A stretch of DNA of 64,000 bases from an uncultured Candidatus Rokubacteria bacterium (GTDB lineage: Bacteria; Methylomirabilota; Methylomirabilia; Rokubacteriales; DASRDR01), in the NCBI GenBank assembly GCA_963812945.1, contig CAWEXD010000004.1, positions 77,178 to 141,177 on the forward strand, read 5' to 3'. The notes below the pieces were generated by a model. That model saw nothing but the letters and a program-made list of their open reading frames with translations. It was not told where the DNA came from and made no database searches. The translations under genes and the position numbers were made by a program. This document shows, piece after piece, positions 4,571 through 61,755 of the stretch; position 1 is the stretch's first letter; each line of letters starts with the position of its first letter.

Positions 4571-4741
4571 GTGGCGGCCTCCGACCGCTGCGCGTGGCGC
4601 CGTCGCTTCACCGCCGAAGGGTCCCAACCCGGCGGACTCCCCGGCGCTGCTCCGCGATACCCTACCACGAGGCCGAGTCGATGCCGGAGAACTGCGATGC
4701 GATCCGCTCACGCCGAGCCGCGCGGGATCGACGGCGCCGTC

Positions 4742-5665: not shown

Positions 5666-5792
5666 GCGGGGCCAACGACGGCGCCGCGTGGGCAAGGGAA
5701 TCACCGGTCCCTGTCCGCCCCACTCATCGCGCCGCAGTCGCCCTGGCTCAGGGTCAGAGACACCTCCCGCGGCTCCTGGCCGCGCCGGCCGA

Positions 5793-5822
5793 AATCTACG
5801 CCGATCCTCGAATCGCCGTCAA
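5793..5822 (-). promoter_or_regulatory. sigma-70-like promoter TTGACG-N18-TAGATT upstream of GT-A/GT2 cassette 1
   Basis: -35/-10 hexamers and 18-nt spacing conserved with copy 2 while spacer sequence diverged; about 130 nt upstream of ATG 5665. Confidence 0.35.
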
Positions 5823-5972
5823 GCGGTGTGGCGCTGAGGAGCCGGCTGGTGGTGACGCGACACGGGCCGCGCCGGCAGGCCCGCAGTTTGGTGCGCCAGC
5901 GTCGGTCGTGCGAAAATCGACGCTCGCCAGCATGCTCGGGCCCATTGACGACAGCGCGGGAAGAAGGGGCGG

Positions 5973-10054: not shown

Positions 10055-10190
10055 CCGGCGCGCGACTAGCGAGGGTGCTCCGCCCGGACCAGCCGCTCTA
10101 CCATGCGAAGGGGCTCGCCGTTCTTGCCGCTTCGGACCAACAACTCAGGGACTCAGGTTCCTTCCGCGGCTCCCGGCCGCGTCCAGGCGA

Positions 10191-10220
10191 AATCTACGCC
10201 GGCACCCCGGGGGCCGTCAA
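10191..10220 (-). promoter_or_regulatory. sigma-70-like promoter TTGACG-N18-TAGATT upstream of cassette 2
   Basis: same hexamers and spacing as 5793..5822; about 135 nt upstream of ATG 10054. Confidence 0.35.
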
Positions 10221-10239
10221 GGCGGGCGGCGTCGGGACG

Positions 10240-11550: not shown

Positions 11551-12134
11551 GTGGTGTAGCCGGCGGACACGGAGCGAACGCGGCGGGCGCCGGACAGATA
11601 GCCCCACACGATGACGAGGCACGCGACCGCGGCGAGCGCCGACATCACCGCGAAGACCCGGCTGAACGGGCCGTGCGGGATGTGGAGCGTCATCGTCACC
11701 TCGTGGGTCCGCATGTGGCTCGCCGAGAGCACCCACAGCCGCCACGCGACGAAGGCCAGCGCCGCGGTGCTGATCGCGTTGACCAGCACCCGTTGCCAGC
11801 GCGCGAAACCAGCGGAGACGAGGTGGTCGAGCACGTCGATGGAGACGTGACCCTCGCGCGCCGTGACGAGCGGCAGCGCGCAGAAGATCAGCATGCCCAT
11901 CAGGAACTCGGTGATCTCGTACGCGCCGTAGACGGGCCGCGTGAAGAGCTTGCGGCCCGTGACGTCGACGAAGGTGAGCACCATCATCGCGAAGAGAACG
12001 GTCGCGGCGACCGTTCCGAGCACCCGGCCGGCCCAGGAGCCGAGCCGGCCGGGGAACAGGTCGTCGAGGGGCGAGGGGGAGGTCGTCAGCCCGCCGCCGG
12101 GCGCGCCCGCCCTCTCGCCTCCCGACGCGGTCAA
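11547..12134 (-). CDS. dctQ: TRAP transporter small permease
   Basis: 4-TM small protein between dctP and dctM; N-terminal extent uncertain. Confidence 0.7.
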   Translation of the reverse strand: MTASGGERAGAPGGGLTTSPSPLDDLFPGRLGSWAGRVLGTVAATVLFAMMVLTFVDVTGRKLFTRPVYGAYEITEFLMGMLIFCALPLVTAREGHVSIDVLDHLVSAGFARWQRVLVNAISTAALAFVAWRLWVLSASHMRTHEVTMTLHIPHGPFSRVFAVMSALAAVACLVIVWGYLSGARRVRSVSAGYTT

Positions 12135-12135
12135 G

Positions 12136-13164
12136 CTACTTCTTCTCGGCCGCCACCTTCTCGACCTCGGCGCGGAAGGCCCGGATCACGTCCTTGCCGT
12201 TCAGGCCCATCTTGTCCATCTTGGCCGCGTAGTCGGCCTCGAGCTTGTCGGTGAGCTTCTTCAGCTCGCCGATGAACGCCGGCGACATCTCCTGCATCTT
12301 CCCGCCGGCCGCCTTCATCGCCTCCCGGCCCTCCTGGTCGGCCTTGTCCCAGCCGCCCCCGGCCAGGCGGGCGAAGTTCTCCTGGGACACCGACAGGATC
12401 GCGTCCTGGTCGGCCTTCGGAAGGCCGTCGAACTTCTTCTTGTTCATCGCGAACCAGAACGAGGAGCTGTAGAGCCCGCCCCGGACGTAGGTGGTGTACG
12501 GGACGAGGTTGGCGATGTTGAAGCTCTTGAGCGACTCGGTCGGGAACATGATGCCGTCGGCGATGCCCGCCGAGAGGATCTCGTACGACTTGGGGGCCGG
12601 CTGCGTGATCACGACCCCGCCGAAGGCCTCGACGATCGCCTTCGGCACGTCGCCGCCCACGCGGATCTTCTGCCCCCGGACATCGTCCGGGTTCAGGATC
12701 AGCTTCTTCGAGTGGTGCATGAGGCCAGGCCCGTGCGTCATGACCCCGAGGAGCTGCACGTCCTTGTGGATCCCGGCCTTCTCGATGTGCGACTTGTGGG
12801 TCCGCCAGAGGGCTACCCCGTTGTGCACCGCGGTCTCGCCGAGCGCCGGCAGCTCGGCGATGAGGTACGGCATGAAGCGCTCCGGCTGGTAGCCGTACGT
12901 CGACCACGCGACGTCGACCTGCCCGCTGACGACCGCGTCGTAGTGCTGGTTGGGCGCGGCGATCGGCTTGGGCAGCATGGTCACCTTCACGCGGCCCGCG
13001 GTCGCCTTCTCCACCTGCGCCGCCCACGGCTCCATCATGTACTTCACCACCGGGTGGTTGGGCGCCACCCAGTTGGACATGGTGAGCTCGGTCTGCGCCG
13101 CGGCCGACGCGCCGAGCCCGGTGAAGAGACCCCCGATGAGAATCGCCAGCACCGTGCGGATCAT
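12136..13164 (-). CDS. dctP: TRAP transporter substrate-binding protein
   Basis: ATG at 13164 preceded by GAGGAGGG SD; signal peptide MIRTVLAILIGGLFTGLGASAAAQ; DctP family body. Confidence 0.85.
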   Translation of the reverse strand: MIRTVLAILIGGLFTGLGASAAAQTELTMSNWVAPNHPVVKYMMEPWAAQVEKATAGRVKVTMLPKPIAAPNQHYDAVVSGQVDVAWSTYGYQPERFMPYLIAELPALGETAVHNGVALWRTHKSHIEKAGIHKDVQLLGVMTHGPGLMHHSKKLILNPDDVRGQKIRVGGDVPKAIVEAFGGVVITQPAPKSYEILSAGIADGIMFPTESLKSFNIANLVPYTTYVRGGLYSSSFWFAMNKKKFDGLPKADQDAILSVSQENFARLAGGGWDKADQEGREAMKAAGGKMQEMSPAFIGELKKLTDKLEADYAAKMDKMGLNGKDVIRAFRAEVEKVAAEKK

Positions 13165-13306
13165 GGATGCACCCTCCTCATCGAATGCGCGCCGGGTTTG
13201 CGGGTGCCCAAAGCGCGTCGCCACGACACCCCCGCGCCGGATCGTAGGCGAAAGAGACCACGGTTCCGGGTAGGCCGTCAAGCCGTTCGGCCCCGCGCCG
13301 ACGAGC

Positions 13307-15049
13307 CTAGGACGCGGGCGCGCCCGGCTCGCCGAGGAGCTCGGCGTGGGCCCGCTCCCGCTCCCGGTCGATCTGCTCCGGGGTCGCGCCCAGGCCCTCC
13401 AGGATCGCCACGGTGAAGGCCAGCGCCACCTCCCCTTCGCCCGAGAACGCCTCGGCCCCGGCCTGGCGGAGGGCGGGCAGCTCGCGCACATAGGTCGAAC
13501 GCGCCAGCACCTGGATCCCCGGGTTCAGCTCCCGCGCCAGGCGCACGATCTCCTCGCCACCGAGGCCGGAGGCGCTGAGGATCAGGCTCCCGGCCTCGGC
13601 GACCCCGGCGCTCCTCAGCGCCGCGCCGTCGCCTGCGTCACCGTACACCGCCGGCACCCCTGCCTCGCGCAATCGACGCACGGTCTCCAGGTTGAGCTCC
13701 ACGATGGTGGGCTCGATGTCGTTCTCCCTGAGGAGTCGGGCGACCGTCCGCCCGACCGGTCCGTAGCCCACGACGACCGCCCGGTGGCGGCTCGAGCGGC
13801 GCGGTACGCCGTCGGTCGCGGCTTCCGGAGTGGACGGGCGCTCCCCTGCCGCCGGGCGGGGCCGGCGGCGGCGCGAGAGCCACGCGTTCACGGGGTCGAC
13901 CAGCCGGTAGAGGAGCGGGTTCAGGGTGATCGAAACGATGGCCGCCGCGACGAGGGTGTTCATGGCAGCCGCCGGGAGGACGCCGCGCTGGCTACCGAGC
14001 AGCCCCAGGATGAAGGAGAACTCGCCGATCTGGGCCAGGGCGACGGCCACCGCCAGGCCGACCCTGAGCGGGTAGCCGAGCAGGCCCATGAGCGCGAGCG
14101 CGACGAGCGTCTTGCCCAAGAGGACGATCGCGAGGGTCGCGGCCACCAGCCCCGGCGCTTCCAGGAGGTGGCCCGGGTCGAACAGCATGCCCACGGAGAC
14201 GAAGAACAGGACGGCGAAGGCGTCCCGCATGGGCAGAACCTCGGACGCCGCACGGACGCTGAATTCCGAGCGCCCCACCACCGTCCCGGCGAGGAACGCC
14301 CCCAGCGCCATCGACACCCCGAACAGCGTGGCGGATCCGACCGCGATGCCCAGCGCCAGCACCAGGACGGTGAGGCTGAACAGCTCCCGGGAGCGCGTCC
14401 TTGCCATGTGCTCGAGCAGCCACGGAATGACCCGCCCGCCGACGAGCAGGGTGAAGGCGACCAGGGCGGCGATCTTCACTGCCGTCACGGCGAGGGCCAT
14501 CGACACCCGGGCCGGGCCGTCCGCCTGGGATCCGACCAGGGCCGGAAGCAACACGAGCACGACCACCGTGAACACGTCCTCGACGATCACCCAGCCGACC
14601 GCGATGTGACCGGTCGGCGTGTGGAGGTCGCGGTTGTCCGTCAGCACCCGGACCAGCACCACGGTGCTGGTCACCGAGATGGCCAGCCCGAACACGATCC
14701 CGGCGGTCCAGCTCCAGCCGAGGGCGTGGGTCACCACCGCCCCCAGCGCCGTCGCCAGGACGATCCGGCCCACGGCTCCGGGGATCGCGACGCGCCGGAC
14801 CGACCAGAGCTGCTCGAGGTGGAAGTGCAGGCCTACGCCGAACATCAGGAGGATCACGCCGATCTCGGCCAGCTGCTCCGCCAGATGCCGGTCGGCGACG
14901 AAGCCGGGGGTGTAGGGGCCGACGGCGATTCCGGCCACGAGATAGCCGACGATCGGCGACAGCCCGAGGCGCTGCGTCACGTATCCCAGGGCGAGGGCGG
15001 CGGCGAGGCCACCCGTGAGCGTCAGGATCAGGTCAAGGTTGTGCGGCAC
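13307..15049 (-). CDS. CPA2 cation:proton antiporter (Kef-type) with C-terminal RCK/TrkA-N domain
   Basis: GTG start MPHNLDLILTL; 12-13 TM Na_H exchanger body then Rossmann-like AVVVGYGPVGRTVARLL. Confidence 0.85.
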   Translation of the reverse strand: MPHNLDLILTLTGGLAAALALGYVTQRLGLSPIVGYLVAGIAVGPYTPGFVADRHLAEQLAEIGVILLMFGVGLHFHLEQLWSVRRVAIPGAVGRIVLATALGAVVTHALGWSWTAGIVFGLAISVTSTVVLVRVLTDNRDLHTPTGHIAVGWVIVEDVFTVVVLVLLPALVGSQADGPARVSMALAVTAVKIAALVAFTLLVGGRVIPWLLEHMARTRSRELFSLTVLVLALGIAVGSATLFGVSMALGAFLAGTVVGRSEFSVRAASEVLPMRDAFAVLFFVSVGMLFDPGHLLEAPGLVAATLAIVLLGKTLVALALMGLLGYPLRVGLAVAVALAQIGEFSFILGLLGSQRGVLPAAAMNTLVAAAIVSITLNPLLYRLVDPVNAWLSRRRRPRPAAGERPSTPEAATDGVPRRSSRHRAVVVGYGPVGRTVARLLRENDIEPTIVELNLETVRRLREAGVPAVYGDAGDGAALRSAGVAEAGSLILSASGLGGEEIVRLARELNPGIQVLARSTYVRELPALRQAGAEAFSGEGEVALAFTVAILEGLGATPEQIDRERERAHAELLGEPGAPAS

Positions 15050-15102
15050 GTGAGTACGGCGCCGGTCGGCCCGTCGTCCGGAGCAGCGGGGGGCTCTCGG
15101 GG

Positions 15103-15471
15103 TTAGCGCCGCCGCATGTTGAAGAAGATCTCCCGGGACTTGTGGCGTTGGTCGATGCTCGCCCGGTCCGTCGCGACCAGCACGTAGAGCATGTTCAGAG
15201 CCGCCAGGGACGATGTCACCAGGCGCCGGCTCCTCGTCCGGTTGAAGACCAGCCTGGCCGTGAGACCCTGTTGCCCCCGCAGGCGGCGGTAGAGCCGGTC
15301 GACGGCGGACTTCGTGACCAGATTGAAGTTGCCCGCCGCCCGCTTGCTGCTGGAGACGGACATCACGAAATACTGGTGGGGGCTGGACAGCACGTAGTAA
15401 TGCTGCCGCTTGCCCTGCACCTCCCCGTGGAAGGTCAAGCCCTTCGTGAGGCTCGTGACGCTCAGCTTCAT
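15103..15471 (-). CDS. hypothetical basic protein (possibly bacterial PH-like)
   Basis: 122-aa ORF 14 nt downstream of the MetE-like gene; noticeably lower GC3 than neighbours; no recognisable catalytic motif. Confidence 0.4.
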   Translation of the reverse strand: MKLSVTSLTKGLTFHGEVQGKRQHYYVLSSPHQYFVMSVSSSKRAAGNFNLVTKSAVDRLYRRLRGQQGLTARLVFNRTRSRRLVTSSLAALNMLYVLVATDRASIDQRHKSREIFFNMRRR

Positions 15472-15484
15472 GGTCGTTCCCCTC

Positions 15485-16588
15485 TCAGCCCCACACGCGG
15501 CGGGCGACGTCGACCACGAGCTCGAGCTTTCGGCGCTGCTCGGCCGGTGTCAGTGGATTGCCGGGGGCCGTGCTCGCGAAGCCGCACTGGGGGCTCAGCG
15601 CCAGCCGCTCGAGCGGCACCAGCCGCGCGGCCAGATCGATTCGCCGGTGCAGATCGTCGGGGGCCTCGAGCGCGGGCGTCTTGGTCGACACCAGACCAAG
15701 GACGACCCACCGGGAGGGCGCGACGTGGCGGAGGGGCTCGAAGCCGCCGGCGCGCGCCGTATCGTACTCGAGGAAGAAGGCGTCGACATCGAGCGCGCCG
15801 AAGGCGCGAGCGGCCACGAAGTCGTAGGCCCCCTCTCCGAGCCACTTGCCCTGGTTGTTGCCCCGGCAGACGTGAATGCCGACGGTCAGCCCGCGCGGGC
15901 GCCCGGCCAGCGCGGCGTTCACCAGGACGACGTAACGCTCGAGCATCTCGGCCGGGTCGTAGCCCTTCGCCCGGAACGCGTCGCGATGCTGTGGATCGCA
16001 GAGGAGGCCGAGCGGCACGTCGTCGAGCTGGACGTAGGTCGCGCCGAGGGCGGCGAGCTCGGCGAGCTCGGCCCGGTAGATCGCCGCCACGTCGGCGAAG
16101 AACTCCTCGAGGTCTGCATAGGCCCGGTCGGACACTCCGGGACGCCATCGCAGGAAGTGCTGCGAGGACGGGCTCGGGAGCGTGACCTTCGGGGTCCGGC
16201 GCGTAAGCGCACGCACGTAGACGAACTCCCCGGTGGCGATCCCGCGACGGCGGACCAGTCGCCCGGTCACCACCGCCGCGCGGTAGCGTAGCGGCTCGCC
16301 GCCGGCGCCTCGGAAGCTCATCTCGGCGTCCATCTCGGTGAACCCGTCGACCGCGTCGGCAAAGTGGCCGAAGTAGATGCCGCGCCGGTACTCGCCGTCG
16401 GTGATGGCTTCGAGACCCACGGCCTCCTGGAGGTCCACGGCTTCCCGGATGTGCAGGTCCTCCTCGGCCCGAAGCCCCTCCGCGGACAGCCGGCCTTCGT
16501 CCGCCGCCCGACGCGCCGCCAGCAACGCGGGTGGACGGAGAAGGCTCCCGATGTGCTCGGCCCGGAACGGAGGGGGGGATCTCAGCAC
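15485..16588 (-). CDS. cobalamin-independent methionine synthase (MetE) C-terminal-domain family protein
   Basis: standalone MetE-C-like (UROD/MetE fold) sequence, about 367 aa. Confidence 0.7.
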   Translation of the reverse strand: MLRSPPPFRAEHIGSLLRPPALLAARRAADEGRLSAEGLRAEEDLHIREAVDLQEAVGLEAITDGEYRRGIYFGHFADAVDGFTEMDAEMSFRGAGGEPLRYRAAVVTGRLVRRRGIATGEFVYVRALTRRTPKVTLPSPSSQHFLRWRPGVSDRAYADLEEFFADVAAIYRAELAELAALGATYVQLDDVPLGLLCDPQHRDAFRAKGYDPAEMLERYVVLVNAALAGRPRGLTVGIHVCRGNNQGKWLGEGAYDFVAARAFGALDVDAFFLEYDTARAGGFEPLRHVAPSRWVVLGLVSTKTPALEAPDDLHRRIDLAARLVPLERLALSPQCGFASTAPGNPLTPAEQRRKLELVVDVARRVWG

Positions 16589-16737
16589 GGTCGAGGCTCC
16601 CGGGCCGCCGGGTGGCCCGGCGAGATCCGGCCCGGCGCTACCACCGGGCGGCCGCGGCGCTCGACGGTCACGCGAACCTCGGCTTCGGGGCGGCTCATCG
16701 TCTTGCCCCCGACGGTAGCACGGGCTAGCTTATCGAG

Positions 16738-18318
16738 GTGACGCCGCGGAGCAAGCCTCCGGCCACCGTGTCCTCGCTCTTCCTCGGTGCGCTGCGCGCC
16801 GCGCCCGACCAGACCTTCCTCGCCATGGAGCAGGCCACGCTCAGCTACGCTGAGACCGCCGACTGGTCGAAGGCGCTCGCCTCCGGCCTCGTCGAGAAGG
16901 GCATCAAGCGGGGCGATCGGGTGGTCGTCGTCTCGACGAACCGGCCCGAGATGGTGGTCCTGTGGCTCGCGTGCCTGCGCCTCGGCGCCTGTTTCTGCCC
17001 GGTCAACCCCGGCTTCACCAGCGGCCAGCTGGCGAACGTCTTCCGCCGGATGGCTCCGGCGCTGGTCGTCGCGGAGCCCGGCATGGCGGCCGCCGTGGCG
17101 GACGGCATGGCTCGCAGCGAGATCGCCGGGCCCGTGGTGGCGCTCGGTCCGGCCGCGTCCGGCTGGGGCTCGTGGACCGACCTCGAGCGGGGCGACGGTG
17201 ACCCCGGATGGGCCGAGGCGCGCGAGGGCGACCTCGCGGCGATCCTGTGCACCTCGGGGACCACGGGTCCCTCGAAGGCCGTGGCGCTGTCGCACCGATG
17301 GTTCACCAAGATCTGCGAGACGACGGAGCGCTACTGGGGATTCAGCGGGCGGGACGTCTTCTACTCCCCGTTCCCCCTCTATCACATCGACGCCCTCGCC
17401 ATCACCGTCGCGCCCGCGATCCACCACGCCACGACCGCGGCGATCGGGACTCGATTCTCCGCCCGCCGGTTCTGGGAGGAGATCCGCCGCTTCGAGGCCA
17501 CGGTCTTCGACTTCATGGGCAGCACGTTGACGCTCCTGTGGAAGCGGGAGCCCCGGCCGGACGACCGGGACAACCCCGTGCGCCTCGGGTGGGGCGTGCC
17601 TCTCCCCGACTTCGCACCCGCCTTCGAGGAGCGCTTCGGCTGCGCGCTCATCGACTGCTACGGCTCGACCGACGTCGGGCTCCCCGTGTGCGGGGTGCCC
17701 GGCGAGCCGAAGCCGACGGGCGCGTGCGGCAGGGCGGCGGAGGGGTACGAGGTGGCAATCCTGTCGCCCGAGGGCGACCGGCGCCCATTCGACCAGTCCG
17801 GGGAGATCGCCGTGCGGGTCGATGACCCCCACACGCTGATGGAGGGGTATGTCGGTGATCCCGATGCCACCCTCCGCACCTGGCGAGGGCTCTGGCACCA
17901 CACGGGCGACCGCGGGCGTCTGGATGCTCGCGGCTACCTCTATTTCGAGGGCCGGATCAGCGATTCGATTCGCCGCCGGGGCGAGAACGTGTCGGCTCAG
18001 GAGCTGGAGGAGCTGATCCAAGCCCACCCGGACGTCGTCGAGGCGGCGGCGATCGGCGTGCCCTCCGAGCTGACCGAGGAGGACATCAAAGTGTCGGTGA
18101 TCGCGCGACCGGGAACGGGCCTCGCCGCGCCGGCCCTCACGGGGTGGATGGCCGACCATCTGCCCCGGTACATGACGGTGCGTTACGTCGAGCTGGTCGA
18201 CAACCTTCCGCGGACCGACACCCAGAAGGTGATGAAGGCCGCACTCCGGGCCCGGTGGCGGACGCCGGGCACGTGGGACGCCGAGCTGACCGCCTATCTG
18301 CCGGAGGAGCCCCGATGA
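16738..18318 (+). CDS. AMP-dependent acyl-CoA synthetase/ligase (ANL superfamily)
   Basis: AMP-binding motif TSGTTGPSK and YGSTD, C-terminal GEN..A.E.E motif; GTG start, exact start uncertain. Confidence 0.8.
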   Translation: MTPRSKPPATVSSLFLGALRAAPDQTFLAMEQATLSYAETADWSKALASGLVEKGIKRGDRVVVVSTNRPEMVVLWLACLRLGACFCPVNPGFTSGQLANVFRRMAPALVVAEPGMAAAVADGMARSEIAGPVVALGPAASGWGSWTDLERGDGDPGWAEAREGDLAAILCTSGTTGPSKAVALSHRWFTKICETTERYWGFSGRDVFYSPFPLYHIDALAITVAPAIHHATTAAIGTRFSARRFWEEIRRFEATVFDFMGSTLTLLWKREPRPDDRDNPVRLGWGVPLPDFAPAFEERFGCALIDCYGSTDVGLPVCGVPGEPKPTGACGRAAEGYEVAILSPEGDRRPFDQSGEIAVRVDDPHTLMEGYVGDPDATLRTWRGLWHHTGDRGRLDARGYLYFEGRISDSIRRRGENVSAQELEELIQAHPDVVEAAAIGVPSELTEEDIKVSVIARPGTGLAAPALTGWMADHLPRYMTVRYVELVDNLPRTDTQKVMKAALRARWRTPGTWDAELTAYLPEEPR

Positions 18319-19100
18319 CATTCGAGACGGTCCTGTACGACGTGCGTGAGGGCATCGCCCACGTCCGGCTCAACCGGCCGCACCGGCTGAACGCGATGGT
18401 GCCGCGGCTGATGGACGAGCTGCACAGAGCGCTCCAGACGGCCGCGGGCGACGTCACCGTGCGCGTCGTCATCCTCTCCGGAGAAGGCCGGGCCTTCTGC
18501 GCGGGTGACGACCTGAAGGAGTCGGCCGAGACGCACATGGACGCGGGTCAGGTCCGGGAGTTCGTGGACGCGATCCAGCGAGTGACGGTCGACATCCGAT
18601 CGATGTCGAAGCCCGTCATCGGCGCCATCCACGGCTACGCGGTGGGCGGCGGAAGCGAGCTGGCGCTGAGCTGCGACCTGGTGGTGGCAGCCGAGGACGC
18701 GCAGTTCGGCTTCCCGGAGACGGGGGTGGGGCTCTTCGTCGGCGGTGGCGTGACGCACCTCCTGCCGCGCGCCGTCGGGCTCGCGCGGGCCAAGGAGCTG
18801 ATCCTCACCGGTGAGTTCTTCGACGGTCGGACGGCCGAGCGGCTAGGGCTCGCGAACCGGGCGGTTCCAGCCGATCAGGTCCTGCCCGTGGCCGAGGCGC
18901 TGGCGCGGACGATCATGGCGAAGGCGCCCATCCCCGTCGTCCTGACCAAGGTCGCGCTGGAAGCCGGGGCTCAGAGCGACCTGGCCACGGCCATGGCGCT
19001 CGAGGCCACGTCGATCGTCGCCTGCTTCCTGACGGAGGACGCGCGGGAAGGCGCCCGGGCGTTCGTGGAGAAGCGACCCCCCCGGTACCGTGGCCGGTGA
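18315..19100 (+). CDS. enoyl-CoA hydratase/isomerase (crotonase family)
   Basis: ATG overlaps acyl-CoA synthetase stop (ATGA); FCAGDDL and GYAVGGGSELAL oxyanion-hole motifs. Confidence 0.85.
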   Translation: MTFETVLYDVREGIAHVRLNRPHRLNAMVPRLMDELHRALQTAAGDVTVRVVILSGEGRAFCAGDDLKESAETHMDAGQVREFVDAIQRVTVDIRSMSKPVIGAIHGYAVGGGSELALSCDLVVAAEDAQFGFPETGVGLFVGGGVTHLLPRAVGLARAKELILTGEFFDGRTAERLGLANRAVPADQVLPVAEALARTIMAKAPIPVVLTKVALEAGAQSDLATAMALEATSIVACFLTEDAREGARAFVEKRPPRYRGR

Positions 19101-19107
19101 GAAGAGC

Positions 19108-19143
19108 GGGGCGCTCGGCCGGGATCTCCCGGACCGAGCGCCC
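19108..19143. terminator. GC-rich perfect hairpin between convergent genes (bidirectional terminator candidate)
   Basis: gggcgctcggccggga-tc-tcccggaccgagcgccc, between enoyl-CoA hydratase stop and the 29-aa peptide stop. Confidence 0.45.
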
Positions 19144-19188
19144 TCGGAAACGGGGGCGACCGGGTCGCGGCCGCTCCCCGTGGGTAGT

Positions 19189-19278
19189 CTACGAGATCTT
19201 CCGCATGGGCTGCCCGCAGCAGGTGCCTGCGCTCTCGGACACGTGCCCACATTTCTCACAGCGGTACTGATTTGCCAT
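19189..19278 (-). CDS. 29-aa Cys-rich peptide (CxxC...CC, TRASH-like metal-binding motif)
   Basis: MANQYRCEKCGHVSESAGTCCGQPMRKIS; ATG preceded by strong SD GAGGAGGTG; last gene of a four-gene small-protein operon. Confidence 0.4.
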   Translation of the reverse strand: MANQYRCEKCGHVSESAGTCCGQPMRKIS

Positions 19279-19295
19279 GGCTTCCCACCTCCTCT

Positions 19296-19640
19296 TCAGT
19301 TGACCTGGATCGCTGTCACGACCTTCTGACCGCCCTTGTTCTCGACGCTCGCCTTCACGATCGCGCCGGCCTTCAGGGTGGCCAGATCGACATTGACCGA
19401 GGCCGGAATCATCAACCGGGTCCCGTCCTCGAGGAGAACCGTCCGGCCAGCGGGATCGATGCTCTTGATCTTCCCGCTGACCTCCCCTTGAGCCGGGCTC
19501 TGCGCTGGCGCTGGCGTCTTCGTCGTCGCTGGCTTCGACGCCGGCGCTGGGGGCGGCCCGGTCTGCGCCCCGACGAGCGAGACGAACACCAGAAGGAACA
19601 CGAGCCACATCCCGATCGCCGCCAAGAGGCTCTCCTTCAT
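19296..19640 (-). CDS. DUF1344-like secreted protein
   Basis: signal peptide, Pro/Ala-rich linker, then GKIKSIDPAGRTVLLEDGTRL...VTAIQV DUF1344-type beta domain. Confidence 0.6.
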   Translation of the reverse strand: MKESLLAAIGMWLVFLLVFVSLVGAQTGPPPAPASKPATTKTPAPAQSPAQGEVSGKIKSIDPAGRTVLLEDGTRLMIPASVNVDLATLKAGAIVKASVENKGGQKVVTAIQVN

Positions 19641-19654
19641 GGCATTCCCCGTGG

Positions 19655-19825
19655 TCAGACGGCTGGCGGCAATCGCCGGGTCCGGGCCATGTGGAACACC
19701 AGGAGCACCACACCCACCAGGAAGAGAACCCAGGCAATCTGCGTGGCCACCTGAGCCACTCCATAGAGCCCGAGAAGCCCGGCCACCAGGCCCACGATCA
19801 GAAACGTGAGCGCCATCGACAGCAT
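19655..19825 (-). CDS. DUF1328-family small membrane protein
   Basis: 56 aa, two TM segments (MLSMALTFLIVGLVAGLLGLYGVAQVATQIAWVLFLVGVVLL); SD GGAGGAGGG 8 nt upstream. Confidence 0.55.
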   Translation of the reverse strand: MLSMALTFLIVGLVAGLLGLYGVAQVATQIAWVLFLVGVVLLVFHMARTRRLPPAV

Positions 19826-34352: not shown

Positions 34353-34369
34353 GGCAATCTCTATGCCGG
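34353..34369 (-). promoter_or_regulatory. sigma-54 promoter CGGCAT-N5-TTGCC
   Basis: predicted TSS about 32 nt upstream of the 34311 ATG (tiny peptide, then PBP1A). Confidence 0.5.
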
Positions 34370-34446
34370 CCACAGCCGGTTGGCCGAAGCGTGTCGGCGA
34401 TCGATGTAGCGATCGATGGAGAAGGAACCGGGCACGCCATGCGCGC

Positions 34447-34472
34447 CACGGTGTCGCGAGCGCGACACCACG
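34447..34472. promoter_or_regulatory. palindromic UAS-like element CACGGTGTCGCGAGCGCGACACCACG
   Basis: contains GTGTC/GACAC dyad words; centre about 93 nt (82 plus one helical turn) from -24 GG of the promoter at 34353..34369. Confidence 0.35.
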
Positions 34473-34687
34473 ACGCTCGTGGCTCCTTGCGCTCCGGGCG
34501 CGCGCTCCGTGGACAGTTCCCGCGGGGAGGCTCCCGCGATCGAATCAAACCCACGGCGTGACGGCACGGCTTTCGCACCTCGCAGAGCGCGATGGTGGCT
34601 CTCCCAGGCGACGCCGAGAAGAAGGTTGACGCTCCCGAAAGGCGTCCGGCCTCCCCCGACCGCCACGGCCAATCACCGAACCAGCCG

Positions 34688-37623: not shown

Positions 37624-38010
37624 TCAGCGTTTGGTCGGCTCGGCCTCGCGTTGGCTCCGGTTCTGGCGACCTGTCGGCTGCTCGGACGGACTCGCCTCGG
37701 TGCCCAACCGGACCGGACGACCCGATTGCCGGTCGCTCCGCTCATCGTCTTGGTCACCCTCGAGCTGGACCGGGCGGCCGGACTCCCGGTCGCTCCGCTC
37801 GCCCTCGAAGAAGTCCTTGCGCTTTACTCCCGCCCCCGGGGTCGGGAGCGGCTTGTCGGTCGGATCACCCGCTGCAGGCTTCTCGAATCCCTTGCGCTGC
37901 TCGAAATCGTCGGGCATCCGGTCGCGCGCAGCGTTGTCGGGAGCGTTCGCGCCGGCACCCGGCCCGTTCAGCTTCTCGTCCGGTCGGCGATTGACTCTCT
38001 TCTTGCTCAT
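37624..38010 (-). CDS. hydrophilic, low-complexity stress-type protein with internal 14-aa repeats
   Basis: ATG at 38010 with AAGGAGG SD; no hydrophobic segment; repeats ERSDRESGRPVQLE / ERSDRQSGRPVRLG; sigma-54 promoter 70 nt upstream. Confidence 0.5.
   Translation of the reverse strand: MSKKRVNRRPDEKLNGPGAGANAPDNAARDRMPDDFEQRKGFEKPAAGDPTDKPLPTPGAGVKRKDFFEGERSDRESGRPVQLEGDQDDERSDRQSGRPVRLGTEASPSEQPTGRQNRSQREAEPTKR
37707..37805 (-). repeat. two about 42-nt direct repeats 57 nt apart inside CDS 37624..38010
   Basis: ccggaccggacgacccgattgccggtcgctccgctcatcgtc vs ctggaccgggcggccggactcccggtcgctccgctcgccctc; encode the ERSDR.SGRPV.L peptide repeats. Confidence 0.4.
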
Positions 38011-38089
38011 GCCGTGGTCCTCCTTGCGGGAATGCGACCGTCCTACGGCCAACTCCACTGGTCCGGGACGGCCATCGTGAGCGGATTGG

Positions 38090-38105
38090 TGCAAGGCAGG
38101 TGCCC
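38090..38105 (-). promoter_or_regulatory. sigma-54 promoter GGGCAC-N5-TTGCA
   Basis: 70 nt upstream of ATG 38010; divergent from the promoter at 38266. Confidence 0.6.
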
Positions 38106-38168
38106 CCGGCTGCGAACGTCCAACTCCGGTCGGGCCAAGCGCACGGCGCGGCCCGAGCGCCGGCGTGA

Positions 38169-38200
38169 CGTCACCCTGTCGTGACTCCGACACGGTGACG
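38169..38200. promoter_or_regulatory. dyad UAS-like element CGTCACCCTGTC-N8-GACACGGTGACG (candidate activator site)
   Basis: 12-bp inverted repeat with 10/12 arm complementarity, preceded by palindrome GTGACGTCAC; centre is 81-82 nt from the -24 GG of both divergent sigma-54 promoters (38090..38105 and 38266..38281). Confidence 0.5.
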
Positions 38201-38265
38201 CCCGCCGGGGGTAGCAATGCCTCGCCGCCGGCAGCGATCCGCGGCCGGCGCGCTCGTCACCGGGG

Positions 38266-38281
38266 TGGCACACGACTTGCG
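38266..38281 (+). promoter_or_regulatory. sigma-54 promoter TGGCAC-N5-TTGCG
   Basis: predicted TSS about 38291, 33 nt before the DUF883 ATG with GGAGGAAGG SD. Confidence 0.6.
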
Positions 38282-38323
38282 ACACGTCCGGGCGACCGGC
38301 AATCACCGAACGGAGGAAGGATC

Positions 38324-38701
38324 ATGGAAGAGCGAATTCGCAGAGAGACCGAGCAGCCGATCGGCGAGTGGGCGAGGTCCGAGGCCCGCGACATCACGGA
38401 CACCGCCCGCCAGCGCGTCCACGAGGCCGCCCGTGGCACGCAGGACTACGCCACCGAGGCCAAGGAATACGTGCAGGGCGCCGTCCGGCAGACGAAGGAC
38501 TACGTCGCGGGCGCGCGGGAGTACGTCGAGGACACCGTCCAGCAGACTCGCGACAAGATCAGCGAATACAGCGAGGGCGGCATCGACAGGGTCAAGCGGG
38601 ACGTCACGGGATACACGCGCGAGCAGCCGATGACCGCGCTGCTCATCGCGGCCGGCGCCGGGCTGGTGCTCGGCTGGCTGAGCGCCGCGGGCCGGCGCTG
38701 A
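38324..38701 (+). CDS. DUF883/ElaB-family membrane-anchored protein
   Basis: SD GGAGGAAGG; coiled-coil N-part, conserved C-terminal TM anchor PMTALLIAAGAGLVLGWL. Confidence 0.7.
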   Translation: MEERIRRETEQPIGEWARSEARDITDTARQRVHEAARGTQDYATEAKEYVQGAVRQTKDYVAGAREYVEDTVQQTRDKISEYSEGGIDRVKRDVTGYTREQPMTALLIAAGAGLVLGWLSAAGRR

Positions 38702-38726: not shown

Positions 38727-39110
38727 GTGAGAACGCAACAGGTGGGCCTCGGCGAGCTGGCGACACGACTGATCGGCGACCTCGGCCGGCTCGTCGACCA
38801 GCGGCTCGACCTCCTCAAGGCCGAGCTCAAGCGCGACGCAGCGAACGTCGCGAGGAACGTCGGGGTGCTGGCGGCCGGAACCGTCGGCATCGGCGTCGGC
38901 GCGGCCCTCCTGCTGCTGGCTCTCGGGCTGTGGATCGGACATCTCGTGGGTTCGACACCAGGAGGTCTGGCCCTCGTGGGCGCAGGTCTCGTCCTGGCCG
39001 GCGCGGGGCTGGGCCTCCTGGCCGTGAAGAGCCTGGCACGCCAACGGCTCGCCCGGGAAACCGTCCGCGAGCTGCGAAGGGACGCCGAATGGATCCGGCA
39101 CGAAGTGTAG
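38727..39110 (+). CDS. phage-holin-family-like small membrane protein (PF07332-type)
   Basis: GTG start; two central TM helices flanked by charged regions; conserved DUF883-holin-DUF3618 gene order. Confidence 0.55.
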   Translation: MRTQQVGLGELATRLIGDLGRLVDQRLDLLKAELKRDAANVARNVGVLAAGTVGIGVGAALLLLALGLWIGHLVGSTPGGLALVGAGLVLAGAGLGLLAVKSLARQRLARETVRELRRDAEWIRHEV

Positions 39111-39640
39111 ACATCGACCGTTTGCGTCGGGATATCGACAGGACTCGCGCGGACATCGCCCAGACGACGGGCGAGCTGCGCCGGAAAGCGGGTGAGGCCA
39201 TGCAGTGGCAGACCTACATCGAGCGGTACCCGGGCCCGATGCTGGCGGCGGCGGCCTTCGTGGGGGTCGCGGTCGGCCGACGGATCGCTCGCGGGATCAG
39301 CCGGGGCGCCGACCGTGGCGACGGACACCAGTGGACGTCCGTCGCGGCAGGAATGGACTCGGTGACGCGGATCCCCGCGCGGGTCGAGACGGGAGTCGAC
39401 CGCTTCGCGGCGGCCAGCGCCTCGTGGCAACGGCTCGCCTCTCGGATCGAGGGTCTGGTCAACAGAGTGATCGACGACGTCGCCGACGCCGCGGAGCGAG
39501 CGCTGGTTCCCGCCCTGGTCGGCGGTGTCCAGGCGTTCCTCGACGGCAGGGCGGCGAGACCAGCAAATCGACCGGGCCCCGTCGCCGGCGCGGCAGTCCG
39601 AGCCGCGACCGCCACGGCCACCACGGCCGAAGGAGAATAA
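39089..39640 (+). CDS. DUF3618 domain protein
   Basis: ATG at 39089 overlapping upstream gene end; DIDRLRRDIDRTRADIAQT.GEL DUF3618-like N-terminus, one TM. Confidence 0.55.
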   Translation: MDPARSVDIDRLRRDIDRTRADIAQTTGELRRKAGEAMQWQTYIERYPGPMLAAAAFVGVAVGRRIARGISRGADRGDGHQWTSVAAGMDSVTRIPARVETGVDRFAAASASWQRLASRIEGLVNRVIDDVADAAERALVPALVGGVQAFLDGRAARPANRPGPVAGAAVRAATATATTAEGE

Positions 39641-39641
39641 C

Positions 39642-40061
39642 GTGAGCCCAACGAAGCTCGATCGACGCGTCACCCGCGAGCTGGAGCGCTTCCTCCAAAA
39701 CGAGGTGACACGCCTCCAGACGTCTCTGCGGGCCGTCATCACGGAAAACCGCACCTCCGAGAGCACGAACCTGACGGACATGTCCGTCCACGCCGCGGAG
39801 ACTCTCCACACGGAGATCCGCGTGACCCTGATGGATCGTCGGACGCAGCAACTCGTCCAGATCCAGGACGCCCTCGCGCGCCTGGCCAACGGGCACTACG
39901 GGTTCTGTCAGGAGTGCGACGCGTTCATCGGCCTGCCCCGCCTCCGGGCGCTGCCGTTCGCCCAGCGGTGCCGGGATTGCCAGGGGAACGCCGAGCGGCA
40001 GGCGCGCCGGGAGTCGGTGGCCGCCGTCCGGCAGCAGTCGCCCGAGCTCGAAGTCGCCTGA
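39642..40061 (+). CDS. DksA/TraR-family C4-type zinc-finger protein
   Basis: GTG with AAGGAG 7 nt upstream; coiled-coil then CQECDAFIG.....CRDC. Confidence 0.7.
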   Translation: MSPTKLDRRVTRELERFLQNEVTRLQTSLRAVITENRTSESTNLTDMSVHAAETLHTEIRVTLMDRRTQQLVQIQDALARLANGHYGFCQECDAFIGLPRLRALPFAQRCRDCQGNAERQARRESVAAVRQQSPELEVA

Positions 40062-43223: not shown

Positions 43224-43404
43224 GTGGAGGCCCTCCAGCCGTCGAGCTCAGGCCTCCCGAGGGAGGTCCCGACTACATTTCAGCCTAGCACGTGCGATGG
43301 GGACGTGCTGCGCGACGGAGGGGCGCGGCCGGTTTTTCGACGCGTCAGCATGACGCGGGGGCGACGACATGACGTCGCGGGCTCCGGGTACACCCTCCCG
43401 CCGG

Positions 43405-49025: not shown

Positions 49026-49055
49026 GCCCTCGAATACAGCAAGGACCGTGCCAGC

Positions 49056-50420
49056 TCATGGCTGCTGGTCCGTCAGCCCGGGCCCCACCCGAAGCATGTT
49101 GGCCTGCATCCGCTGCAGCGTCCGCACGCTGATTCCGAGGATGCGGGCCGCGGCTCGCTTGTCGCCGCGGACCTCGTCAAGAATCCGACGGATGTACTGG
49201 CTCTCCACCTCGGCCAGGGACGGGCGCACGCCCAGCTCGCTACTGGACCCCGGGGTGAACTCGATGCGGAGGTCGTCCCGAGTAATGACGCGGCCCTTCG
49301 TCAGCGTGGCCGCCCGCTCGACGACGTTCTCGAGCTCGCGGACGTTACCCGGCCAGCTGTGCTCGTGGAGCCACTTGACGGCCTCCTCGTCGAAGCCGTC
49401 GATCTCCTTCCCCATCCCGGCGGCCGCGCGCTTCAGGAAGTGCTCGGCCAGGAGCGGGATGTCCTCCGGCCGCTCCCGGAGGCTGGGGATCCGGATCGGG
49501 AGGACGGCCAGCCGATAGTAGAGATCCTCGCGGAACTTCCCCTGACGCACGAGGGCGGGCAGGTCCCGGTTGGTGGCGCTGATGAGACGGAGGTCCACCT
49601 TGATCTCCTCGTTGCCTCCGACGGGCCGCACGACGCGGTCCTGGAGGGCACGAAGGAGCTTCACCTGGAGGGACTGGGGCATCTCGGCGATCTCGTCGAG
49701 CAAGAGCGTCCCGCCCTCGGCTTCCACGAAGAGGCCCCGCCGCTTCCGATCGGCGCCCGTGAAGGCTCCCCTCTCGTGTCCGAACAGCTCGGACTCCAGG
49801 AGCGTCTCGGGAATGGCCGCACAGTTGACGGCGACGAACGCCCCCTCGCGGCGGCCGCTGTGCCAGTGGATGGCCCGCGAGACCAGCTCCTTGCCCGACC
49901 CGCTGTCCCCCAAGAGCAGCACCGCCGCGTCGGTGTCCGCCACCACGCGGATCTGCTCGAACACGGACTGCATCGCCTTCGAGCGGCCGATGATGTTGTC
50001 GAAGCTGTAGCGGCGCTCGACCTCGGCCCGGAGCCGGCGGTTCTCCTCACGCAGGCGCTGGTCCTCGACGGCCCGCTTGACGACCAGGGACAGCTCCGGA
50101 AGCTTGAAGGGCTTCATCAGGTAGTCGTACGCACCCTGGCGCATCGCATCGATGGCGCTCTCGAGGCTCCCGAACGCCGTCATGAGGATGACGCGGGCGC
50201 GCGGCTGGACCTTCTGCGACTCGCGCAGCACGGCCAGGCCGTCCACGGGCTCCATGACGAGGTCGGTGAGGACGACCGAGTACTCCTCGCGTCCCAGCGC
50301 CGTCTGGGCGTCCTCCCCGCCGGTGACCGTCGTCACCGACCAGCCCTCTGTCTCGAGATGGCGCCGGAGCAGCGCCACCATGTCCGCATCGTTGTCCACG
50401 ACGAGAATTCGGGATTTCAT
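49056..50420 (-). CDS. sigma-54-dependent transcriptional activator, NtrC family (REC plus AAA+ plus Fis-type HTH)
   Basis: receiver D-box, Walker A GDSGSGKE, GAFTGA sigma-54 contact loop (ERGAFTGA), C-terminal HTH; ATG overlaps HK stop. Confidence 0.9.
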   Translation of the reverse strand: MKSRILVVDNDADMVALLRRHLETEGWSVTTVTGGEDAQTALGREEYSVVLTDLVMEPVDGLAVLRESQKVQPRARVILMTAFGSLESAIDAMRQGAYDYLMKPFKLPELSLVVKRAVEDQRLREENRRLRAEVERRYSFDNIIGRSKAMQSVFEQIRVVADTDAAVLLLGDSGSGKELVSRAIHWHSGRREGAFVAVNCAAIPETLLESELFGHERGAFTGADRKRRGLFVEAEGGTLLLDEIAEMPQSLQVKLLRALQDRVVRPVGGNEEIKVDLRLISATNRDLPALVRQGKFREDLYYRLAVLPIRIPSLRERPEDIPLLAEHFLKRAAAGMGKEIDGFDEEAVKWLHEHSWPGNVRELENVVERAATLTKGRVITRDDLRIEFTPGSSSELGVRPSLAEVESQYIRRILDEVRGDKRAAARILGISVRTLQRMQANMLRVGPGLTDQQP

Positions 50421-51898
50421 GGCTGCTCCCTCCCTGCTTCCGAGCTGGCTTCGGGCAGCCAGACGGTGAAGGTGGTGCCCTCGCCGGGCATGCTCGCCAC
50501 CTGGATCTCGCTGCCGTTGGACCGGACAAGGTCGCGACAGATCGCGAGGCCGAGACCGGATCCCTCGCGAGCGGGCTTGGTGCTGAAGAAGGGGTCGAAG
50601 ATCTTGGGAAGGACATCCGCGGGGATCCCGGATCCGCTGTCTCGAACCTCGATGGCGACCCCCGGCCGTCCGTCGTCCAGCCGGTGCGCCCCGGCGACCT
50701 CGACCCGGCCGCCGGCCGGCGTCGCCTCGATGGCGTTCGTGAGCAGGTTGATCAGCACCTGCTGGAGATGGCCGGGGTCGACGAGCACCTCCGGAAGGTC
50801 GCGCGGGAGCCTGACCGCCAGGGTGACGCCGCGGGTCCGGGCGAAATGCTGGAGCAACGGTCGGAGGCCCTCGGTGACCGACCCGGGCGCGGTGGCCGTC
50901 CGCTCGGGCTCGCGCTGGCGGAAGGGATCCAGGGCCGCGCGGATCATCTTGGATATCCGGTCGATCTGGGCGATGACGACGTCGAGGTCCTCCCGGAGCG
51001 GTGAGTCCTTGGGCACGGCGCGCAGCATCAGCTCGGCGCGGCCGGCAATGATGTTGAGCGGCGTGCCCACCTCGTGCGCGATGCTCGAGCAGAGCTTGCC
51101 GGCGATCGCGAGGCTTTCCGTCTGCCGCAGGCGGCGCATCAGCTCGAGCGACCGGTCCGACTCGGCCTCCACCCGCTGGCGGGCTTCCTCCAGCCGTTCG
51201 GTCATCCGGTTGAAAGCCGTCGCGACCTGACCCAGCTCGTCGCGGCTCCGGACCGGCACCGGCGCCGGGGCCGCGCCGGACCCGACACGCTCGATCCCCT
51301 GCATCAGGTCGGCGACCGGCCGGAAGACGAGGCGCTGGAGGGCCATCCAGATGATCAGGCCCAGGAGCACGACGAGCACGCTGCCCCGCAGCGCGATCTT
51401 GTAGTTCTCGCTGAGCAGGGCCGCCTCCAGGCGGCCCGCGACGAAGGCGACTTCGAGCACTCCGTCGTCGGAGCCGGACGACGAACGGACCGGGAGAAGC
51501 ACGCTGTGCAGCCGGATGCCCGCGCTCTGGTGCTCGACGACGGCCGGCTGGCCCGTCTCCCGGACCCCCCGATGCCGATCGAGGGACACTCCAGGATCGC
51601 CCGCGAGGAGGTTCGCGTCGACCCGCCGCGCCAGGTTCCGGTCCAGCAATCGGATGCGAACGATCTCGGTCTGCTTGACGACCAGGTCGTCGGCCAGCCG
51701 CTTGACGTCGGCCAGCGTGCCGCCCCGGAGCGCGTTCTCCACCGCAAGCCGGATGGCCGTGCTCGTGACGTTGACGCGCAACTCGAACTCCGCCCGTCGC
51801 TGTGCGCGCTCGTCTCTCATGAGGACGTACGTAAACACCGCGACGACCAGGACCATCGGCACGAGCAGGAGTAGGACTAGGCGAAGTCGCAGTCCCAC
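50417..51898 (-). CDS. sensor histidine kinase (2 TM, HAMP, HisKA, HATPase)
   Basis: H-box SIAHEVGTPLN, N-box LLTNAIEA, G-boxes DSGSGI, GSGLGLAI. Confidence 0.85.
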   Translation of the reverse strand: MGLRLRLVLLLLVPMVLVVAVFTYVLMRDERAQRRAEFELRVNVTSTAIRLAVENALRGGTLADVKRLADDLVVKQTEIVRIRLLDRNLARRVDANLLAGDPGVSLDRHRGVRETGQPAVVEHQSAGIRLHSVLLPVRSSSGSDDGVLEVAFVAGRLEAALLSENYKIALRGSVLVVLLGLIIWMALQRLVFRPVADLMQGIERVGSGAAPAPVPVRSRDELGQVATAFNRMTERLEEARQRVEAESDRSLELMRRLRQTESLAIAGKLCSSIAHEVGTPLNIIAGRAELMLRAVPKDSPLREDLDVVIAQIDRISKMIRAALDPFRQREPERTATAPGSVTEGLRPLLQHFARTRGVTLAVRLPRDLPEVLVDPGHLQQVLINLLTNAIEATPAGGRVEVAGAHRLDDGRPGVAIEVRDSGSGIPADVLPKIFDPFFSTKPAREGSGLGLAICRDLVRSNGSEIQVASMPGEGTTFTVWLPEASSEAGREQP

Positions 51899-52049
51899 GG
51901 GGTCCTCAGTCTAGCACGCGTCCGACGCGCGACAGCCCGCCCCCCGAACGACAGGATGGCGTTCGTCCTCGAGCGGCCGTGTTCGCGGCGGCGTGCATTT
52001 CGCGCGCACTTGTCGCGTCACACCAGGACGCCGCGCGCGCGGCCCCGCG

Positions 52050-61228: not shown

Positions 61229-61277
61229 AGAGTCCAGCGAGGATAGCAACCCCGGAAGGAGCCCTGCCAGCCTGACG

Positions 61278-61565
61278 TCAGCGCGACGCGGTGTCGTGAC
61301 GGGACGCGGCCGGGGACGAGGTACTCGAGGGCGGATCCTGCGTGGACGGCGGGCTGGGCGGTTTCCGGCGCCGGGCGCTACGGCGCGCGGCGATGACCGT
61401 CGCGTACCCGGCGATCAGCGCCAGGAAGACGACCGGAATCAGCCCCGGCCACAGATGTCGATCGCGCTCCGCGAGTTCCGCCGGGTTCGGGTCTCCTGTA
61501 ACTGGCTGGGCGTACAGTGCCGTTGCCGCGAGGAGCAAACAATACGCCCCAAGGGCCAGGGCCAC
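61278..61565 (-). CDS. possible small two-TM membrane protein
   Basis: two hydrophobic helices within ORF 61278..61769; GTG start guessed; GC3 atypically low; weak call. Confidence 0.2.
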   Translation of the reverse strand: MALALGAYCLLLAATALYAQPVTGDPNPAELAERDRHLWPGLIPVVFLALIAGYATVIAARRSARRRKPPSPPSTQDPPSSTSSPAASRHDTASR

Positions 61566-61739
61566 CAGCGCGGCGGCGTGGCGGACGGTCCGAAGATCAC
61601 GGAGCGGTGAGCGTGGGGTGCCCGGTCGCGGGGGCACGCGCCCCGCGCGCCAAGCGCGGCTCGCTCCGAACCGGCGACGCCCCCTGATCGTTCGCTCCAC
61701 GATCTCAGTCGGTGCAAGGCACATACCCGGACGTGCGGG

Positions 61740-61755
61740 TGGCACCTTGCTTGCT
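61740..61755 (+). promoter_or_regulatory. sigma-54 promoter TGGCAC-N5-TTGCT
   Basis: consensus; TSS about 61766, then AAGGAGG and the ATG at 61783. Confidence 0.6.

Follow-up and report, generated by a model that had tools for sequence, protein, structure and literature searches.

Promoters read by sigma-54 require an activator, a bacterial enhancer-binding protein (bEBP), of which one hexamer engages one polymerase with its sigma-54 at a time. At glnAp2, adjacent dyad sites ~100-140 bp upstream of the transcription start site (TSS) nucleate the oligomer of the response-regulator bEBP NtrC, NtrC-type sites have half-site centres spaced by 11 bp, and the upstream activator sequence (UAS) of NifA is TGT-N10-ACA. 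Divergent sigma-54 promoters under common control have also been described: as part of a stress response, the response-regulator bEBP ZraR controls both the zraP and the zraSR promoter, which diverge from a single intergenic region (PMC4987338), OrpR (DVU2106) of Desulfovibrio vulgaris co-activates the divergent orp1 and orp2 sigma-54 operons via palindromes between them (PMC3897727), and for DVUA0100 of D. vulgaris a shared motif has been predicted between divergent type III secretion system operons (PMC4641369). Here we analyse a stretch of 64,000 nucleotides from a Candidatus Rokubacteria (Methylomirabilota) genome of ~70% GC (hereafter the window; these 64 kb are the part of its own genome that was covered), in which a 32-bp dyad at 38169-38200 would act as one sigma-54 enhancer serving two divergent promoters. 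From the sequence and its distribution in relatives, we put the probability of this reading at roughly 0.8. That divergent sigma-54 promoters can share an enhancer has been established before, and this dyad is a further, well-supported example.

Two divergent promoters and the dyad between them

Scanning of the window with the pattern TGGCAC-N5-TTGCW, with 100 dinucleotide-preserving shuffles of the window as the null, revealed 10 sites with at most one mismatch versus 0.67 expected, a number that was reached in 0/100 shuffles. A sequence-only reading of the stretch had placed a divergent pair of such promoters at 38090-38105 (minus strand, GGGCACctgccTTGCA when read from 38105 to 38090, ahead of the gene for a hydrophilic repeat protein, below called hydrophilin) and at 38266-38281 (plus strand, TGGCACacgacTTGCG, ahead of a DUF883 operon), and both stood up: each carries one mismatch to the pattern, and in both the GG and GC doublets of the -24/-12 boxes are intact and exactly 10 nt apart. 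The TSSs deduced from these boxes would lie near 38079 on the minus strand and near 38292 on the plus strand, giving predicted 5' untranslated regions (5'UTRs) of ~69 nt and ~32 nt, respectively. Neither a sigma-70-like promoter nor an intrinsic terminator was found on scanning 37900-38420.

The predicted enhancer at 38169-38200, to which no strand is assigned, is an inverted repeat (CGTCAcccTGTCG tgactc CGACAcggTGACG) with two 13-nt arms (38169-38181 and 38188-38200) that are 92% complementary and separated by a 6-nt gap. Its centre (38184.5) is 81 nt away from the minus-promoter GG and 83 nt away from the plus-promoter GG, essentially the 81-82 nt on either side that had been claimed, and at ~-106/-107 relative to each inferred TSS. 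Each arm taken alone is a near-palindrome, CGWCA-N3-TGWCG, and the two W positions turn the whole 32-mer into a single dyad, such that the full element, CGTCA-N3-TGTCG-N6-CGACA-N3-TGACG, comprises four half-sites in one super-dyad. A perfect 10-bp palindrome (GTGACGTCAC, 38165-38174) overlaps the left arm, and the 'GA' ahead of CGTCA recurs in several orthologues, with no mirror copy at the right arm.

When the window was searched with CGWCA-N3-TGWCG-N6-CGWCA-N3-TGWCG, 9 copies emerged at no more than two total mismatches (none in 100 shuffles) and 11 at no more than three, exclusively in the 19-bp start-to-start register. Scores from a position weight matrix (PWM) are bimodal, with 13 sites in the window at 15 bits or above (starting at 20089, 21733, 22320, 30203, 34444, 36476, 38169, 43343, 45078, 51930, 52863, 59613 and 61265) and all others below 9 bits; the element at 38169 scores 36.8, the second highest value in the window, and is the only one in its intergenic region. 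Because pattern-selected sites went into the matrix, counts obtained with it contain some circularity, from which the shuffles, the register test and the comparison of inner with outer half-sites are free. In 57 elements collected from 210 kb of Rokubacteria DNA with a search pattern that gave the four half-sites equal weight, mismatches number 43 in the inner half-sites and 70 in the outer ones, which makes the inner dyad TGTCG-N6-CGACA (38177-38192), with half-site centres 11 bp apart, the best-conserved core. Conservation is limited to the half-sites, and the N3 and N6 positions vary freely.

The elements keep company with sigma-54 promoters. Of the 10 sigma-54 sites that match best in the window, eight are preceded by an element at 48-106 nt and, conversely, 39 of 42 elements (window plus 12 loci from relatives) have a sigma-54-like site with no more than two mismatches facing away from them at 46-135 nt. 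Promoters that fire in one direction are also preceded by a complete element (e.g. 45078 ahead of 45176 and 59613 ahead of 59698), arguing that the 32 bp act as a unit rather than as two half-enhancers. On sequence grounds, the dyad thus has the features expected of an enhancer, i.e. dyad symmetry, a position within ~80-150 bp upstream of the TSS and recurrence at several sigma-54 promoters, and it is the single putative activator-binding region between the two divergent promoters, as expected of a shared one.

How does this arrangement compare with the described systems? Like zraP/zraSR of E. coli and Salmonella, it has one intergenic region, two divergent sigma-54 promoters and a relation to stress, and the candidate activator (encoded at 49056-50420, see below) is likewise a two-component bEBP. 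However, one of the zra operons encodes the regulator itself whereas here neither does, and the element here belongs to a regulon with many promoters and other gene content, the candidate regulator scoring 409 bits against a ZraR cut-off of 760. The orp system differs in having a palindrome for each of its two promoters and the regulator gene in between, and in requiring IHF sites, compared to one element and no conserved IHF-like site here. The core of the dyad, TGTCG-N6-CGACA, also reads TGT-N10-ACA at a distance typical of a NifA UAS, but the outer half-sites extend it to 32 bp, the candidate regulator has a receiver instead of a GAF domain and 368 bits versus a NifA cut-off of 529, and the targets are stress genes with no nif genes among them. 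With NtrC at glnAp2 the locus shares the 11-bp spacing of the inner half-sites and the domain order of the regulator; by contrast, the recognition sequence is another, the dyads are centred 19 bp apart within a shared super-dyad, and the regulator reaches 435 bits against a cut-off of 559.

Conservation and spacing in related genomes

A profile scan of genomes with an alignment of the DUF883-like protein, the product of the first plus gene, yielded 12 loci from distinct Rokubacteria species (L001-L012), nine of which (L001-L009) have 60-69% protein identity and two of which (L010 and L012) encode a paralogous DUF883-like protein; three closer relatives (L018, L019 and L020, 83-92% protein identity) were added. 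The order minus promoter, one element, plus promoter is found in the window and in 12 other Rokubacteria genomes whose neighbour protein is 60-92% identical. In an alignment of 11 genomes, conservation is confined to the UAS, the -24/-12 boxes, the ribosome-binding site and a semi-conserved stretch of 5'UTR. The boxes on each side are kept in the 12 other genomes while their N5, the flanks and the DNA between the blocks are not: those of the minus promoter read (G/A)GGCAC-N5-TTGCA with a variable N5, and the plus promoter block, near-invariant in the alignment, lies 51-62 nt ahead of the ATG in most orthologous loci. PWM scanning of the window region and the nine orthologous intergenic regions identified exactly one element of 30-37 bits in each, the next best score being below 8 bits, and each of the three closer relatives has one element above the 12-bit threshold used for them, in the same layout.

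Distances were measured from the UAS centre to the GG doublet. On the plus and minus side, respectively, they are 83 and 81 nt in the window, 83 and 131 nt in L001, 82 and 93 nt in L002, 82 and 75 nt in L003, 95 and 68 nt in L004, 83 and 115 nt in L005, 103 and 84 nt in L006, 82 and 92 nt in L007, 82 and 84 nt in L008, 94 and 83 nt in L009, 83 and 82 nt in L018, 81 and 86 nt in L019, and 83 and 65 nt in L020. The plus distance is therefore 81-83 nt in 10 of the 13 genomes and 94, 95 or 103 nt in the other three, i.e. longer by ~11 or ~21 nt, whereas on the minus side it varies between 65 and 131 nt; L018 and L020, whose neighbour proteins are 91-92% identical, share the plus distance and are 17 nt apart in the minus distance. 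The plus distances of the first ten genomes, which are non-independent orthologues, follow a 10.5-bp helical period with R = 0.89. Helical phasing across all sites, also non-independent, is weak (R = 0.32-0.44).

The sequence-only reading had derived a single shared activator from the symmetry of the arrangement. A single enhancer for both promoters is supported by the presence of one element per region and by the conservation of both promoters, and one assembly bound there may fire both; the argument from symmetry is not supported, since the spacing in the 13 genomes reveals that sharing is kept and symmetry is not. Symmetry as a functional feature was rejected, the 81/83 spacing being limited to this genome and a few relatives.

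Candidate activator and competing explanations

The candidate activator is encoded on the minus strand at 49056-50420 and has, by Pfam, a receiver, an AAA+ domain and a Fis-type helix-turn-helix (HTH_8), with the GAFTGA loop and the receiver aspartate both present. Its partner, a sensor histidine kinase with HAMP-HisKA-HATPase organization, is encoded at 50417-51898, also on the minus strand. Among the window proteins that were scanned, which do not comprise every open reading frame (ORF) of the window, this regulator is the sole sigma-54 activator. NCBIfam gave no name for regulator or kinase, all equivalog models staying below cut-off: in addition to the NtrC, ZraR and NifA models mentioned above, AtoC (462 versus 714 bits) and GlrR (408 versus 763 bits) fell short, such that no known specificity can be transferred. 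The protein is thus a generic NtrC-family regulator. Its closest solved relatives in the PDB are Aquifex NtrC-type proteins and ZraR, and several homologues bear the JGI label 'HydG', an older name of ZraR.

Homologues of the regulator are up to 97% identical. On the L003, L008 and L009 contigs they share 89-94% identity, compared to 60-67% for the DUF883-like protein, and even around homologues with only 72-75% identity elements and divergent sigma-54 pairs are found. The kinase-activator-regulator cluster resides in the same island in L013 and L015. The recognition helix of the helix-turn-helix is invariant across the aligned homologues (71-93% identity), which renders co-variation of helix and motif consistent with the assignment yet unable to discriminate. 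A weak element at 51930-51961 (PWM score 15.8), with a counterpart in L013 at 8464, precedes the start codon of the kinase gene by 32-63 nt and may autoregulate the kinase-activator operon. The same element is 106 nt upstream of a divergent sigma-54 promoter at 52050 (plus strand) for a WXXGXW lipoprotein. Three nt past the activator stop codon there is a perfect sigma-54 site (TGGCACGGTCCTTGCT, 49038-49053, minus strand) that has no element within 200 nt upstream, precedes genes for a single-domain response regulator, an NTP_transf_5 protein and a metallophosphoesterase, and is kept in relatives (L013 at 11368, L015 at 11371).

On the basis of location and conservation, we lean towards the 49056-50420 regulator as the activator of the 38169-38200 element. 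A different bEBP encoded outside the window is possible but less likely. The 64 kb are all that is visible of the genome, a bacterium with numerous sigma-54 promoters often has many bEBPs, and the regulator stays under all equivalog cut-offs; on the other hand, it is the only such activator among the scanned proteins, it occurs in the island in at least three species, elements adjoin its operon, and its recognition helix is invariant wherever the motif occurs.

In the mechanism that we propose, activator dimers would bind the four half-sites of 38169-38200; upon phosphorylation of the response regulator by the kinase, activated dimers would assemble into an ATPase hexamer that, by DNA looping, could remodel the RNA polymerase-sigma-54 complex at either the minus or the plus promoter, ATP hydrolysis then opening the promoter. 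A further DNA-bending protein, or properties intrinsic to the DNA itself, may help to form the loop over ~80 bp. As a hexamer engages one polymerase at a time, firing of the two promoters would probably be alternating rather than simultaneous. The same signal would switch on the hydrophilin gene and the DUF883 operon together, and plus transcription would perhaps continue into the genes for DedA and cardiolipin synthase.

Several observations weigh against the proposed mechanism. The minus distances are unphased (R = 0.39 for the first ten genomes, non-independent orthologues), suggesting that the minus promoter may depend less strictly on the 38169-38200 element, and the phasing statistics as a whole rest on orthologous sites, which are non-independent observations. 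L011 has the same layout, but its element suffers from a 1-nt deletion (3.1 bits), and in L010 and L012, the paralogous loci, a plus promoter is present with no element recognisable by PWM. A search between UAS and promoters for the IHF consensus WATCAANNNNTTR, which is that of E. coli and may not apply to this phylum, returned matches with two mismatches only (window 38212 and L008) and none in eight other genomes; no conserved IHF-like site is thus there to account for the ~80-bp loop. Finally, the activator is assigned by location and conservation, and other bEBPs may be encoded elsewhere in the genome.

Could the dyad be two adjacent enhancers, the left 13-mer acting on the minus promoter and the right 13-mer on the plus promoter? 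The near-palindromic nature of each 13-mer speaks for it, as do the separate palindromes that serve each divergent sigma-54 promoter of orp in D. vulgaris (PMC3897727). Yet we consider it improbable, as the two-part element always keeps its 19-bp register, also ahead of one-directional promoters, as its W positions make the 32-mer a single dyad, and as its best-conserved pair, the inner half-sites, takes one member from each 13-mer (43 versus 70 mismatches). Even a little less probable is that the enhancer drives the plus operon only and that the minus sigma-54 site is served otherwise, weak or non-functional. The plus spacing of 81-83 nt, or this plus ~11 or ~21 nt, next to an unphased minus spacing of 65-131 nt speaks for such a one-sided enhancer. 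Against it, the minus GGCAC-N5-TTGCA persists in 12 other genomes, where a conserved ORF with a ribosome-binding site follows it; all PWM-scanned intergenic regions lack a second element; sigma-54 promoters need an activator; and UAS-to-promoter distances elsewhere in the regulon span 46-135 nt.

It is highly improbable that the dyad is instead a repressor operator, a repeated extragenic palindrome or small mobile repeat, or a hairpin that works in the RNA, as might be suspected of a GC-rich inverted repeat with many intergenic copies. Only the half-sites are conserved while N3 and N6 are free, 39 of the 42 copies have a sigma-54 site within enhancer range, and the orthologous position is kept across species whose flanking DNA is unalignable. 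There is neither a T-run nor a sigma-70 promoter, and Rfam at gathering thresholds gave no match in the window, such that no known RNA element accounts for the dyad or the UTRs; moreover, the element lies upstream of both inferred TSSs and would therefore not be transcribed from them. A single enhancer shared by both promoters is thus the reading that we retain.

Putative target genes and a proposed stress regulon

The gene labels given from the letters alone were borne out for both flanks, with a hydrophilic protein carrying a duplicated motif on the minus side and DUF883, Phage_holin_3_6, a weak DUF3618 and a DksA zinc finger on the plus side. The minus gene (37624-38010) encodes a hydrophilic, probably disordered protein of 128 aa, a hydrophilin, from an ATG preceded at 8 nt by an AAGGAGG ribosome-binding site. 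This protein has no match in Pfam or NCBIfam; its motif RSDRESGRPVQL(E/D)DD is present in two copies, and an ORF with the motif occupies the same position in most orthologous loci. Some hydrophilin orthologues (L001, L009) look frameshifted, possibly owing to errors in the assembly of these metagenome-derived genomes.

The first gene of the plus operon (38324-38701, GGAGGA ribosome-binding site) codes for the 125-aa ElaB/YqjD/DUF883-like protein with a C-terminal membrane anchor, for which 177 homologues were retrieved under the JGI name ElaB/YqjD/DUF883; an exact-sequence look-up gave no match, despite a 100% identical cluster among these homologues. In its 5'UTR (38292-38323; alignment columns ~165-185), a semi-conserved GAAGCAATCTC stands just ahead of the ribosome-binding site, the window version being GGCAATCAC. 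The paralogous loci L010 and L012 (DUF883-like paralogue of 52% identity) have a strong sigma-54 promoter at 3904-3919 (TGGCACATGGCTTGCG) and no element within 500 nt upstream. Downstream on the plus strand follow a Holin-X-like membrane protein (38727-39110; Pfam Phage_holin_3_6, E = 1.5e-18), a DUF3618-like protein with an uncertain start codon (39089-39640; weak Pfam E = 3e-4, below the curated cut-off) and a DksA/TraR C4 zinc-finger protein, also of uncertain start (39639-40061, ORF opening at 39525; Pfam zf-dskA_traR, E = 3e-10), which is below the cut-offs of the NCBIfam DksA models. The gene order including the Holin-X-like gene recurs in L013, L015 and L019. Past the fourth gene lie genes for a VTT/DedA protein and then a PLD-type cardiolipin synthase.

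The genes downstream of the elements in the window encode DUF1328, a PRC/BON-like secreted protein, TreZ with a debranching enzyme, an AI-2E transporter, CsbD-BON-DUF3309, the hydrophilin, the DUF883 operon, a DUF748 protein, a PCC-domain protein, the WXXGXW lipoprotein, GlgX-TreY-EncFtn-encapsulin and M48 peptidase-PsiE. They are a general-stress, osmotic and desiccation set, and the at least 13 window elements appear, from sequence, to define a sigma-54 regulon of stress genes in Candidatus Rokubacteria. All 13 elements and most of the sigma-54 sites of the window fall within a ~40-kb 'stress island' (19900-61300), which also carries an SOD-like protein and a GH15 trehalase-like protein and whose gene order is largely kept in L013 and L015; positions 1-19800 are without an element.

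Single elements flanked by divergent sigma-54 sites occur elsewhere as well (minus/plus distances in nt): in L001 at 6282 (115/80), in L016 at 3883 (103/50) and at 17852 (62/60, between an EncFtn-encapsulin operon and an HSP20 gene), and in L017 at 12364 (97/68). A second bidirectional case in the window is the element at 34444-34475, with a GG at 93 nt on the minus side (a site with three mismatches) and at 104 nt on the plus side; the sigma-54-like site at 34353-34368 (minus strand) precedes a tiny membrane protein and is kept as (G/A/C)GGCACAG(A/G/C)G(A/C)TTGCC in five related loci (L003, L004, L005, L009 and L011), and the site at 34562-34577 (plus strand) precedes the AI-2E transporter, which has a B12-binding-like C-terminus. 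The centre of element 43343-43374 is 48 nt from the GG of the promoter at 43405 (plus strand) for the DUF748 protein, unusually near for an enhancer, and L006 has a comparable case at 46 nt. An orphan element (61265-61296), located between the end of PsiE and a small membrane ORF on the minus strand, has no promoter within 200 nt, and two sigma-54-like sites lie back to back 16 nt apart at 61708-61723 (minus strand, three mismatches) and 61740-61755 (plus strand, perfect).

CsbD, BON/OsmY-like proteins, ElaB/YqjD (DUF883), small membrane stress proteins, trehalose synthesis and ferritin-like proteins are typical content of the general stress regulons of sigma-S, sigma-B and EcfG, which the set resembles; control here, however, appears to be exerted via sigma-54 and an enhancer-binding response regulator rather than a dedicated alternative sigma factor. 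Our literature search found no paper naming both Rokubacteria and sigma-54, and searching for a CsbD-type general stress set controlled by sigma-54 returned no direct precedent; a stress and desiccation regulon under sigma-54 in this phylum appears to be the unreported part. We regard as evenly poised the broader proposal that Rokubacteria run their general-stress and desiccation response via sigma-54 and one highly conserved two-component bEBP instead of a dedicated stress sigma factor such as sigma-S, sigma-B or EcfG, with a 32-bp enhancer of four half-sites that is routinely bidirectional. Such a response may comprise CsbD, BON, ElaB/DUF883, the hydrophilin, DUF1328/DUF3309, TreXYZ, encapsulated ferritin, cardiolipin synthase and HSP20.

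The locus provides a well-footprinted natural case of one putative enhancer with two sigma-54 promoters, in which spacing is helically constrained to one promoter and free to the other, and it would be useful for testing whether two polymerases take turns at one bEBP hexamer. Classic general-stress genes of an uncultured phylum that abounds in soil appear to be placed under sigma-54 together with a two-component activator, and the motif, the gene list and the candidate sensor can now be tested against metatranscriptomes of soil drying and rewetting.

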